A stretch of DNA of 64,000 nucleotides from Escherichia coli O127:H6 str. E2348/69 (GTDB lineage: Bacteria > Pseudomonadota > Gammaproteobacteria > Enterobacterales > Enterobacteriaceae): the NCBI RefSeq assembly GCF_000026545.1, contig NC_011601.1; one strand, given 5' to 3'. The position numbers were made by a program. Shown here piece by piece: positions 27,001 to 31,238 of this stretch (position 1 is its first letter; every line of letters starts with the position of its first letter).

Positions 27001-30000
27001 GGCGGATTGCGCTCATGACCATTTCATCCCGCCACGGTGAGTCCGAAAGCCAGGCATCAATCAACGCAAAACCGGTAATCGGTTTCACTTCGTAGAGCAG
27101 ATCGAAACGCCCTGAAACGGGCAACCAACCTAGCGTGAGTGAACAAAACAGCATCAACAGAAGCGCCAGCCAGAACACCGGGATTGAAAAGCCCAGTAAG
27201 GCGATGGCGTTGATCAAGTTATCCTGCCACTTATGGCGCGTAATCCCGGCAATCATTCCTACGGGGATGCCAACAATCAGCGCAAAACCGAAGGCGAGGA
27301 TGCACAGTTCCATCGTCGCCGGGAAGACCTCTTTTAACTGTTCGGCAATCGGTTGACCGTTAATGCTGGAAACACCAAAATCCCAGTGGATCAGGCCGTT
27401 AAACCAGAACACCCAGGCATTCCACAGTGATGCGCCTTGTAACGGCGCATGTGGGGTGAAATAGCTCAAGCTGAAGCCAACGAAGGTCAGCAGGAACAAG
27501 GTGACAATCAATAACAAAATACGGCGTAAGGTGAAGATAATCATGGCTTTTTCACCTCATCCTGTTTCTCGCGATACACCCCAGCAAAGGAGGCGTTACC
27601 AAACGGACTAAGTACCAGACCTTTGATATCGTACCGATAGGCCTGCAAACGCAATGACGACGCCAGCGGCAAAATGGGCAATTCCTGCGCCAGAATACTC
27701 TGCGCTTCGTCATAGGCTTCGATGCGCGCCGCCAGTTGCTGCGAGGAGAGCGCCTTACGCAATACGCTGTCGAATTTCGGATCGCACCAGTGGGCGAGGT
27801 TGGTCTGTGAATGAATTGCCGCGCAGCTCAGTAACGGACGGAAGAAACTGTCCGGGTCGTTACTGTCCGTCGCCCAACCGGATAACGTCAGATCATGGCT
27901 CATATCCATCAACCGCGCCTCCTGAAAACGACCTTCTACCGGCACAATCACCACTTTTACGCCAACCTGTGCCATATCCGCCTGAATCAGTTCGGCTGTT
28001 TTCAGTGGACTGGGGTTCCACGCCTGCGAACGAGTGGGCACCCACAGTTTCAGCGTTAAGTTTTCCAGCCCCAACGCCTTCAACTGTTCGCGCGATTTTG
28101 CCGGATTGTATTCAGTAATTTTAGCCTCGTTGTCATAGGCCCACGAGGCGCGCGGTAAAATAGAGGCCGCCGTTTCAGCCGTACCATAATAGATGGATTG
28201 CATCAGGCGCTGGTTATTAATCGCCAGTGCCAGCGCATGGCGGACCGCCGGATTATTTAGCGGCGGTTTAGCGGTGTTAAACGCCAGATAGGCGACGTTC
28301 ATCCCCGGGCGCAGCGTTAAACGCAAACGCGGGTCATCACGCAAAATGGATAGCTGACTGGCGGCAGGCCAGGCCAGGACGTCGCACTCCCCGGTCAGGA
28401 GTTTCGATAATCGTCCTGTACCGCCAGAGCCTAAATCCACCACCACTTGTGGCATCAACGGCTTACCACGCCAGAAATCATCATGACGTTGTAAGCGAAT
28501 ATATTGCCCGGCGCGGTATTCCGACAACTGATACGGACCTGTGCCGACCGGTTGACGGTCGAGTTGCTCCTGGCGATCTTCTTTCTCTAACTTCCCTGCA
28601 TATTCTGCCGACATGACCGAAGCATAATGGGTCGCCAGGTGCCACAAAAAAGAAGCATCCGGCTGAGCCAGACGGAACTCAACGGTATGATTATCCAGCT
28701 TGCGGACGCTTTTCACGTTATCGGCAAATTGCAGACTGTCGAAATAGGGGAAGTTACTGCCGTTGACGTTATGCCACGGGTTGTTGCGGTCAAAAATCCG
28801 TTGGAAGGTAAACACCACATCATCGGCATTCATTTTACGAGTGGGAGTAAACCAGTCGGTTTTTTGAAACGGAACATCGCGACGCAGGTGGAAGCGATAG
28901 GTCGCGCCGTTGTCGAGTACTTCCCAGCTTTCGGCAAGTTCCGGCATCAGGCGATAGGTATAGGGATCGACATCCAGCAGTCGATCATAAAACTGGGCGG
29001 CAAGGGTATCGACAATTAACCCACTGCTCGCTTTGGATGGGTTAAAGGTGTTGACTTGCCCGCTGACGCAATAGACAAAACCGCTGTCACGGATATCAGC
29101 ATGCGGGGGGGATTCAGGCGCGGCGATTGCCTGACCACTCACAAGTCCAGCAATCACCAAAAGAGACGATAATACCTGGCGCATAATATTAAGGGATTTT
29201 ATGTAAAGAGGCTATCTTACTAATATTTAATGACATTTGCCATTACCGTTTGTTTTCAGGGGTAATAATGAGGGCCGTGTGGTTGGTCATTGAACAGGTG
29301 GCGTCGCCATCAGTTCAACATTCGTACCCGTGATTTCTTTATAACTATAACTCACAGAACAACTTAGCGAGGAGCAGAGCGGTACGATCGTGAGAAACCC
29401 ATTAAAGCACGCTGCTGTGCGTGTCATTTTTAGCCGGATGCAGCGCGAACGCTTTATCCGGGCAACGATACTGACCGATCGTCTGCAATTAAATAATTAC
29501 TCATTACCCCATTGATTCAAAAACTCTGCGATCTCATCAATGCGTACGGGATTAATCCCCGCTTCAGCAGCCATTTCATGTTGGGCTTCTTCGCTGATTT
29601 CTTCATTGTTCATCAAACGGGTGAGCAGTAACTGGAAGTAGAGGGCCAGCGGTGTGCGTTCAGCGTCTGCGACAGGCTCTGCGCATTCGGTCGCGTACTC
29701 ATCGGCAATATCAAAATATTTTAGCGGGATATCGTGGTTCATTATTTGCCCCTGGGGTTAATGCGCTAAGCATAAGGGCGGATGATAGCACTCGTGATCC
29801 GGGTCATACATCTTTTTATAGTTAATGGCGCGGTGCATTACCCTCAGGCAGGATAATGCGCCGCGCATTCGACTATTACGTTTTGCTCACCGGCGTTCTG
29901 TCGCCATCATACAATGGCACTTTGCGATAGCGGCGGATCAAATACCACAAATATGCGCCGCCTAACGAAGCCCATACCATCCCGGTTGCGCAATTCGATG

Positions 30001-31238
30001 CGGCAATGAAAATTTTGCAGGATGCGCTGAGAGATTAATACGTAGAAGCAGGGTTAACGCAATAATGCCTGATGCGCAGCGCTTATCAGGCCTGCAAACG
30101 ACGTATTGATTTTGTAGGCCTGATAAGGCGTTCACGGCACACCCGGCAAGTTGCATTGTCGAAATGCTAAAGCTGGTGCTTTTTCAGCAACGCGCGGAAC
30201 TGATGATAGGTTAACCCCAGCAATTCAGCGGCGCGCTTCTGGTTATATTTCCCCTGTTGCAAACTGAGTTGCAGCAACTCTTTTTCCTGCTGCATCTGAA
30301 ACTCGCGTAAATCCAGTGGCAGCGTCGGAAGCGAGGTGTTTTCTGAAACGGCGATGGCTTCTTCAGATGGACGGCGTTTAAAGGGATCAATAATGATGTC
30401 ATCAAGCGGATAATCGCTGGTGCCGTGGCGATACACTGAACGTTCCACCACGTTTTTCAATTCACGTATATTTCCCGGCCAGCGATAATTCAGCAATGTT
30501 TCTCTGGCGTGCTCGGTAAAACCCGGGAACAGAGGCAGCTTGATTTCCCGACACATCTGGATGGCAAAGTGTTCTGCCATCAACATAATGTCGCTTTCAC
30601 GTTCGCGTAGTGGCGGCAGTTGCACAACATCGAACGCTAGTCGGTCGAGCAGGTCAGCGCGAAAAGTCCCTTCATTGACCATCGCCGGGAGATCGGCATT
30701 CGTCGCGCATACCAACCGCACATTCACCTGCAATGGCTGGCTGCCGCCGACGCGCTCCAGTTCACCGTACTCAATCACACGCAATAATTTTTCCTGCACC
30801 ATCATCGGTGCCGTAGCGAGTTCATCAAGAAATAGCGTACCGCCGTCGGCACGTTCAAATCTCCCTGGATGACGTTTTTGCGCACCGGTAAACGCCCCCG
30901 CTTCGTGACCAAACAGTTCGGAATCCAGCAGATTTTCATTTAACGCCGCGCAGTTAAGGGAAATAAACGGCCCTTGCCAACGGGAGGAGAGATAATGCAG
31001 GCGGCTGGCGATCAGCTCTTTACCGGTGCCGCGCTCGCCGATGATGAGCACCGGTTTGTCCAGCGGTGCGAGATGCGAAACCTGTTCCAGCACTTCGAGA
31101 AAGCTGTTCGCCTCACCGAGTAAATTATCTTTGTATTCTGCCATGATGAAATTCGCCACTTGTTAGTGTAATTCGCTAATTCATCCTGGCATGTTGCTGT
31201 TGATTCTTCAATCAGATCTTTATAAATCAAAAAGATAA

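Follow-up and report, generated by a model that had tools for sequence, protein, structure and literature searches.

Introduction

In Escherichia coli K-12 MG1655, the genes puuP, ymjE, puuA, puuD, puuR, puuC, puuB and puuE are located between ymjA and pspF. The puu genes constitute the gamma-glutamylated putrescine utilization pathway (Kurihara et al. 2005, as cited in PMC9205054). In E. coli E2348/69 (EPEC O127:H6, phylogroup B2), the source of the 64-kb stretch of DNA analysed here (the window), ymjA and pspF are close neighbours, and a first reading made without database searches (the sequence-only reading) attributed this either to an ancestral empty site or to a REP-associated deletion at a variable hotspot. 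Was puu lost from this lineage or never gained by it, and did the repeats at the junction play a part?

That puu is missing from B2 strains is already known. Table 5 of Touchon et al. 2009 (PLoS Genet, PMC2617782) lists puuPADRCBE as absent from B2, and its footnote 'a' marks rows that remain valid with E2348/69 included. The loss is also reported in an ST131 pangenome paper (PMC9205054) and in a preprint (bioRxiv 10.64898/2025.12.08.692790). In their puu-related sections these reports deal with gene presence/absence or transcripts, and with respect to genes, lineage and conclusion our result is the same as that of PMC2617782, Table 5. What we add are the breakpoints at base level, the puuP and puuE remnants, a 4-bp microhomology, a count in 5,426 complete genomes, and the finding that the REPs were not involved. 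A further small addition is the description of two more lineages of Escherichia in which puu is missing and the junctions differ. For E2348/69 itself, the absence of puu was checked directly by tblastn of the window and by a chimeric query on the chromosome.

Results

Both flanking genes are intact, as judged from the ORF list and from how RefSeq annotates the identical sequence of E2348/69. On the minus strand, ymjA (DUF2543, 81 aa) occupies 29497-29742 and differs from its K-12 counterpart at 3 of 246 nt, and pspF, which encodes the sigma-54 activator of the psp operon, occupies 30167-31144 (its longest ORF extends to 31159). Between the two genes lie 424 bp (29743-30166) without a puu cluster, much as the sequence-only reading had it with a spacing of about 420 bp; its count of seven puu genes in K-12 was also right, the small gene ymjE being there as well. 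A tblastn search with the eight K-12 proteins found no complete puu gene in the 64-kb window, the matches being two terminal fragments in the gap (PuuP residues ~427-461 and PuuE residues 402-421). The window therefore does not hold a cluster of puuA with puuB, puuC, puuD and puuE accompanied by puuP and puuR.

The gap can be divided into four pieces, all of which are found in K-12 (coordinates of the K-12 reference locus are given as L001). Next to ymjA is the original ymjA-puuP intergenic spacer (29743-29875), which comprises the 133-bp ymjA upstream region, is intact and collinear with L001 3670-3802, and differs from K-12 at 3 of 133 nt. It is followed on the minus strand by the last 104 nt (34 codons and the stop) of puuP, the putrescine:H+ symporter gene, at 29876-29979. 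This remnant aligns by blastn to L001 3803-3906 with 6 of 104 nt differing, and its translation matches the PuuP C-terminus in frame. The truncated puuP was flagged independently by PGAP, which labels 29876-29983 a pseudogene "missing N-terminus". On the plus strand, 29976-30038 represents the last 63 nt (20 codons and the stop) of puuE, the GABA aminotransferase gene; it aligns by blastn to L001 12754-12816 with 2 of 63 nt differing and likewise matches the PuuE C-terminus in frame. Neither remnant contains a frameshift. The last piece is the original puuE-pspF intergenic region (30039-30166), which contains a BIME, aligns with L001 12817-12935 and carries 11 extra bases relative to K-12 directly after the puuE stop. 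The earlier description of the gap as non-coding thus holds only in part, as 163 of the 424 bp belong to the 3' ends of puuP and puuE (104 + 63 nt, 4 overlapping).

Alignment by blastn showed that 29000-29979 corresponds to L001 2927-3906 (97.1% identity) and 29976-30598 to L001 12754-13367 (90.9% identity). The two flank alignments overlap by 4 bp, and 8,847 bp of the K-12 sequence are missing between them. A three-way alignment placed the breakpoint at 29976-29979, where the tetranucleotide ACCA is common to the puuP-side and puuE-side sequences. When used as a query against puu-positive genomes, the 91-bp junction splits accordingly into positions 1-45 (puuP) and 42-91 (puuE), with a 4-base overlap. 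Both breakpoints are intragenic, at about codon 427 of puuP and codon 401 of puuE. The chance of a microhomology of at least 4 bp at a random junction is ~1.6%. Four other Escherichia lineages also have ACCA at the site on the puuE side; on the puuP side, the site was locatable in one lineage, L006, and ACCA is conserved there too. Every base of 29743-30166 aligns to the K-12 flanks except for the 11-bp indel, which lies ~60 bp from the junction, and neither the K-12 alignment, a tRNA scan nor IS/integrase annotation within 5 kb revealed a mobile element, att site or filler sequence at the junction. The locus therefore has the features of a microhomology deletion scar, with collinear flanks, genes truncated on both sides and shared bases at a junction free of such sequences.

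Of 5,426 complete E. coli genomes, 1,046 carry the identical junction, CFT073, E2348/69 and O25b:H4 among them; the assignment of the 1,046 to B2 is based on these three named strains and on the literature. On the basis of PMC2617782 (Table 5) and the puu-related part of the 2025 preprint, the junction would be exclusive to B2. The junction was not found in O157:H7, K-12, HB101, ATCC 8739 or O78:H4 APEC. puuADR was found in 4,374 of the complete genomes, so that the two complementary states cover 5,420 of 5,426. At most six genomes fall outside both, and no intermediate allele turned up among the 5,426. E. coli thus has essentially two alleles at this locus, which is not a hotspot in this species.

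Two ways in which the absence of puu could have been misleading, relocation of the intact genes and misassembly, had been named with the sequence-only reading, and neither was borne out. A chimeric query (the junction plus 800 nt of puuA) matched only one place per chromosome, both in three assemblies of E2348/69 or O127:H6 and in 57 others that bear the junction; no relocated puuA was therefore seen on the best 60 of the 1,046 junction-bearing chromosomes, E2348/69 included, in a DNA-level megablast search (~85% identity or more) confined to puuA and to chromosomes. Across 901 bp, five assemblies (three of E2348/69 or O127:H6 and two of close relatives) agree at 100% identity, which together with the 1,046 genomes that share the junction excludes misassembly.

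The REP near 29433 and the BIME at 30067-30150 proposed from the sequence were borne out by a consensus scan and an inverted-repeat search. The REP (29433-29466, plus strand) lies outside the gap, in the sapA-ymjA intergenic region, has 4 substitutions relative to the 34-nt E. coli REP consensus and is orthologous to the K-12 REP at L001 3360-3393. The BIME consists of inverted REPs at 30067-30093 (plus) and 30114-30147 (minus; 3 mismatches to the 34-nt consensus) around a ~20-bp linker. Both elements are extragenic and match the consensus, and matches of this quality number only three in the 64 kb. Within the BIME, an inverted repeat (30082-30098 / 30111-30127) is 94% complementary with the arms 12 nt apart, and as RNA the element forms a single long hairpin (-47.1 kcal/mol, z = -5.3). 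An Rfam scan of 29200-30400 gave only sub-threshold naRNA4 matches at the REPs (E = 0.062 at 29433-29466), which we read as reflecting REP-like sequence, and no known RNA gene in the gap. A promoter/terminator consensus scan of 29300-31400 gave none inside the gap, and counts were near shuffle expectation.

Alignment showed the BIME to be orthologous to that of the K-12 puuE(goaG)-pspF intergenic region, reportedly described by Jovanovic and Model in 1997 (J Bacteriol) as a "RIB element". In both strains it lies directly downstream of pspF with inverted REPs around a linker, which in E2348/69 carries a predicted IHF-like AATCAA motif (read by eye), as in K-12. In contrast to K-12, where the BIME divided the convergent genes puuE and pspF, its puuE partner is gone in B2 and it now separates the co-directional pspF and ymjA; in addition, one of the REP arms is divergent, with an 11-bp indel next to it. 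The BIME is 88 bp away from the breakpoint, and the REP between sapA and ymjA is 510 bp away. A REP scan of the K-12 locus found copies only at the same two flanking positions and none at either breakpoint, so neither breakpoint lies within or at a REP. The K-12 alignment, which had been suggested as a means of seeing whether the repeats coincide with the island boundaries, shows that they do not.

Beyond E. coli, the same position, flanked by pspF and ymjA, is occupied by puu in E. albertii and E. whittamii as well as in two more Escherichia lineages; its presence is therefore ancestral in the genus. Two other lineages lack puu with breakpoints that differ from the B2 junction. In Escherichia sp. 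MOD1-EC7003 (L003), puu is wholly lost together with the BIME and without remnants, and L004, the divergent E. coli SCPM-O-B-8794, keeps 65 nt from the interior of puuE, with a gap on either side. In single-gene NJ trees of sapA and pspF with E. albertii as the outgroup, L003 and L004 nest among puu-positive lineages. The two trees disagree, probably due to recombination, and were used solely for this nesting. L003-type and L004-type junctions were not found in complete E. coli genomes. An L003-type query did match 1,040 genomes at >=80% coverage; these are apparently B2-type loci in which two pieces ~518 bp apart were joined, as was seen in all 12 of the matches listed.

In other genera, ymjA is not beside sapA or pspF; its neighbours include LysR regulators, an RluA-like protein and a DapA-like protein, among others. 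These neighbours proved no guide to the pre-Escherichia state.

Discussion

Our studies indicate that the 424-bp gap is very probably the scar of one ancient chromosomal deletion of 8,847 bp, by which puu was lost in the B2 lineage. The deletion would have taken most of puuP, all of ymjE, puuA, puuD, puuR, puuC and puuB, and most of puuE; ymjA keeps its original 133-bp upstream region. We predict that it arose by illegitimate, microhomology-mediated recombination of the replication slippage or end-joining type, and not by REP-REP, IS or site-specific recombination. The evidence for this mechanism is a single 4-bp microhomology. The distribution of the junction suggests one event in the B2 ancestor followed by vertical inheritance, although the deletion allele may also have spread by homologous recombination and not purely by descent.

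The alternatives fit the data far less well. If B2 had never had puu, and the cluster had been inserted as an island in other E. coli lineages, one might expect what is seen outside the genus: none of ~70 ymjA loci outside Escherichia and Pseudocitrobacter has puu adjoining ymjA, and in Pseudocitrobacter the cluster is 91-94% identical to K-12 at the nucleotide level, against only 80-83% for ymjA, a difference that suggests horizontal mobility. Yet the gap holds in-frame 3' ends of puuP and of puuE that share 94-97% identity with K-12, which refutes this reading: an allele that never took up the insert could not have kept pieces of its outermost genes. The occupation of the same site in the other Escherichia lineages, the lack of a tRNA or integrase, and a GC content of 54.6% in puu against 50-53% in the flanks also speak against an island, and we regard this explanation as highly improbable. 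The other half of the earlier proposal, a deletion, is upheld, and its association with REPs is not. REPs are known substrates of rearrangement, and a REP and a BIME do flank the region, so that REP-REP recombination or REP-associated (RAYT or gyrase) cleavage deserved consideration. Against this, the breakpoint is in coding sequence at the distances given above, both repeat loci are intact and have orthologs in puu-positive K-12, and no REP occurs at puuP codon ~427 or puuE codon ~401 in the locatable sequences of K-12 and L005-L008. A role for the repeats is hence very unlikely, and from these comparisons they appear to be bystanders.

Stepwise decay, in which puu was inactivated earlier by point mutations, IS elements or smaller deletions and the junction records the last event, is the least implausible alternative, although still an unlikely one. 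The more complex scar of L004, with its puuE fragment between two gaps, indicates that multi-step decay does occur at this locus. In the window, however, there is one clean junction with perfectly collinear flanks and no frameshifts, it is the same in 1,046 genomes, and intermediates did not appear. That puu persists elsewhere in E2348/69, or that the junction is an assembly artefact, has a negligible probability. Six plasmid places in the collection carry puuADR, which attests to extra-chromosomal copies somewhere in the species; on the other side stand the single place returned by the chimeric query, the complementary counts, the identity of independent assemblies and the published lack of puu transcripts in B2 strains. 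Taken together, these comparisons favor a single deletion.

The idea of a variable hotspot finds no support within E. coli, where two states account for 5,420 of 5,426 complete genomes; at the genus level, the two other lineages that lack puu with different junctions lend partial support to recurrent loss. The locus has no tRNA, integrase or compositional anomaly, and the many alternative inserts of an island hotspot are likewise not seen. One could speculate that puu behaves in Escherichia as a module prone to repeated loss and occasional transfer, a view that we hold tentatively and consider somewhat doubtful. If it were true and the losses were independent and driven by selection, the absence of puu would represent convergent adaptation and not a product of drift; a possible benefit would be, for example, that putrescine is kept intracellular in some host-associated niches.

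Relative to the K-12 arrangement ymjA-puuP-ymjE-puuA-puuDRCBE-pspF, the B2 locus retains orthologous flanks, collinear at 96-97% identity, and the 3' ends of the outermost genes, and has no functional puu gene left. According to the puu-related parts of published studies of B2 strains and of the pathway in K-12, B2 lacks PuuA-initiated gamma-glutamylation catabolism and the PuuP importer, and takes up putrescine but barely degrades it. The deletion would underlie this known failure of B2 strains (ExPEC, ST131, EPEC E2348/69) to catabolise putrescine via PuuA. This failure is relevant to studies of polyamines in urinary and gut colonisation, a link already in the literature, and the importance of our result beyond bookkeeping is small.

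The cadA "black hole" deletions are familiar examples of the lineage-specific loss of a polyamine-related gene in pathogenic E. coli and Shigella. Table 6 of PMC2617782 lists the loss of speG in Shigella. As in these cases, a function related to polyamines has been lost, and the loss fixed, in a lineage rich in pathogens; unlike them, the puu deletion has different breakpoints, where many of those losses involve IS elements, and it bears no sign of adaptation here. The direction of the polymorphism is settled as loss and not gain, and the exact 91-bp junction sequence could serve as a marker of the puu-negative (B2) allele.

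Results

A 901-bp query covering 29400-30300 was 100% identical to five assemblies, three of them of E2348/69 or O127:H6 and two of close relatives, and the window corresponds to NZ_CP059840.2 2594718-2658717 on the reverse strand. E2348/69 belongs to phylogroup B2, as stated in PMC2617782. According to the ORFs and the RefSeq annotation, sapA (27541-29184), ymjA (29497-29742) and pspF (30167-31144) lie on the minus strand and pspABCDE, from 31311, on the plus strand. The short ymjA-pspF spacing without a puu cluster, first noted from sequence alone, was confirmed by these annotations at 424 bp (29743-30166). 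The MG1655 locus (L001; NC_000913.3 1354000-1370000) served as the K-12 reference for this gap; it carries puuP, ymjE, puuA, puuD, puuR, puuC, puuB and puuE between ymjA and pspF, so the sequence-only reading was right to place seven puu genes there in K-12.

Comparison of 29000-30600 with L001 by blastn yielded two collinear blocks: 29000-29979 aligned with L001 2927-3906 (97.1%), and 29976-30598 aligned with L001 12754-13367 (90.9%). Given the bounds of K-12 puuP (L001 3803-5188, minus strand) and puuE (11551-12816, plus strand), the window therefore keeps the 3′ ends of both genes: 104 nt of puuP (29876-29979) and 63 nt of puuE (29976-30038). These remnants encode the PuuP and PuuE C-termini in frame, with two amino acid differences each, and in the independent PGAP annotation 29876-29983 is a pseudogene that is truncated ('missing N-terminus'). 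In a three-way alignment, puuP-side sequence gives way to puuE-side sequence inside an ACCA motif (29976-29979) that is present at both K-12 sites; relative to K-12, 8,847 bp are missing. The rest of the gap aligned throughout to the K-12 flanks, save one 11-bp indel directly after the puuE stop (within 30039-30066). The native 133-bp upstream region of ymjA is retained, and no IS, att-like repeat, tRNA or integrase was present at the scar.

A REP consensus scan returned only three REP-like matches in the 64-kb window, and both REPs named in the sequence-only reading were recovered, at 29433-29466 (+) and 30114-30147 (-). The latter is paired with a shorter REP (30067-30093, +) to form a BIME (30067-30150), the inverted arms of which are 94% complementary. 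As RNA, the BIME is predicted to fold into one long hairpin (-47.1 kcal/mol; z = -5.3 versus shuffles). Its right REP arm has diverged, reading GCCGGGTGTGCCG... in the window versus GCCGGATGCGGCG... in K-12. The BIME formerly lay between the convergent puuE and pspF genes, and now lies between the co-directional pspF and ymjA.

Two origins had been proposed for this site, an ancestral empty site or a REP-associated deletion. The gap holds the ends of puuP and puuE, which would be impossible in a site that was never filled; the ymjA-pspF gap is therefore a deletion scar. The deletion junction falls within coding sequence, at a distance of 88 bp from the BIME and of 510 bp from the REP between sapA and ymjA. 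In K-12, where puu is present, the two repeat loci occupy orthologous positions (L001 3360-3393 and about 12836-12914), and a scan of the K-12 locus detected REP copies only at these two flanking positions and none at either breakpoint. A REP-associated deletion is rejected on these three grounds. Microhomology of at least 4 bp is expected by chance at approximately 1.6% of random junctions. The puuE-side ACCA is conserved in four other Escherichia lineages and the puuP-side ACCA in the divergent 'E. coli E69' (L006), the sole lineage where that site could be located. Based on these observations, we infer from this one junction that the deletion probably arose by microhomology-mediated illegitimate recombination.

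A 91-bp query with the breakpoint at its centre was used to survey 5,426 complete E. coli genomes. It matched end to end in 1,046, CFT073 among them; in all the others it split into a puuP-annotated part (positions 1-45) and a puuE-annotated part (positions 42-91), whose overlap is exactly the four bases of microhomology. K-12 puuA-puuD-puuR DNA was found in 4,374 genomes of this collection. The two states thus account for 5,420 of the 5,426 genomes, and E. coli is essentially biallelic at this site; approximately six genomes with neither puuADR nor the B2-type junction show that rare further alleles exist. Six plasmid 'places' in the E. coli genome collection carried puuA-puuD-puuR DNA. Relocation of puu, which the sequence-only reading had named as a refuting condition, was assessed with a chimeric query that joined 800 nt of K-12 puuA to the 901-bp junction. 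The best 60 records were all junction-bearing chromosomes, with the three E2348/69 or O127:H6 assemblies and one O25b:H4 strain among them, and each had a single matching place; there is therefore no puuA-like DNA elsewhere on those 60 chromosomes. Misassembly is excluded because many independent assemblies share the junction.

The genus was surveyed by a YmjA scan of one genome per species followed by tblastn synteny mapping. E. albertii (L008), E. whittamii (L007), Escherichia sp. E1V33 (L005) and L006 all have the puu cluster between pspF and ymjA. Its presence is therefore ancestral in Escherichia, in agreement with the remnants in the window. Two lineages were without puu at this position. 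In 'Escherichia sp. MOD1-EC7003' (L003; 9900-10001), 20 unrelated bases separate the pspF stop from the 77 bp immediately upstream of ymjA, with no puu remnants and the BIME lost. The divergent 'E. coli SCPM-O-B-8794' (L004; 9773-10001), with flanks approximately 92% identical to the window, still has 65 nt from the interior of puuE (E = 1e-17 to 1e-19). Both breakpoints are unrelated to that of B2, and neither junction type was found in complete E. coli genomes. The locus had been called a variable hotspot; this label is accordingly wrong for E. coli, although puu loss is apparently recurrent in the genus.

Outside Escherichia, synteny mapping never placed ymjA beside sapA or pspF. The puu clusters of Pseudocitrobacter vendiensis (L010 1-7447) and P. 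faecalis (L011 1-7416) share 91-94% nucleotide and 95-99% amino acid identity with K-12, whereas Pseudocitrobacter ymjA, 2.5 kb from puu and with neither sapA nor pspF nearby, is only 80-83% identical at the nucleotide level. This disparity hints that the puu cluster has moved horizontally from one genus to another.

Discussion

The Puu pathway of K-12 is established (Kurihara et al. 2005, cited in PMC9205054). Judging from this pathway, the deletion would abolish both the uptake of putrescine through PuuP and its breakdown by the route that PuuA initiates. Table 5 of Touchon et al. 2009 places puuPADRCBE among functions specifically absent from group B2 (PMC2617782), an ST131 pangenome study describes the same absence for ST131 (PMC9205054), and a 2025 preprint (bioRxiv 10.64898/2025.12.08.692790) reports that puu transcripts were lacking in 26 B2 strains and terms this 'a general property of B2 strains'. 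Loss of puu in B2 is therefore already known. Our analysis resolves its anatomy to the base (breakpoints, remnants and microhomology), clearly rejects both the empty-site and the REP-mediated reading, counts the alleles across 5,426 genomes, and adds two further independent junctions that lack puu, from other lineages of Escherichia.

Other features were observed elsewhere in the window. Between sapF and fabI, where K-12 presumably carries only ycjD, five genes (TetR regulator, RND adaptor, RND permease, outer-membrane factor and MFS transporter; ~14804-22296) form an efflux cluster, and beside it an ISEc13 (IS4-like) copy (~22326-23699) adjoins sapF. Together these look like another point near the puu scar at which strains or lineages differ. 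At ~41117-44943, ycjT (GH65 family; kojibiose phosphorylase in K-12) is interrupted by a second ISEc13 copy (~43370-44743), which leaves two pseudogene pieces in the ycjM-ycjV sugar-utilization cluster. In addition, yciW is annotated as frameshifted (~12267-13393), and an IS200C tnpA lies just downstream of rnb (~9622-10080).
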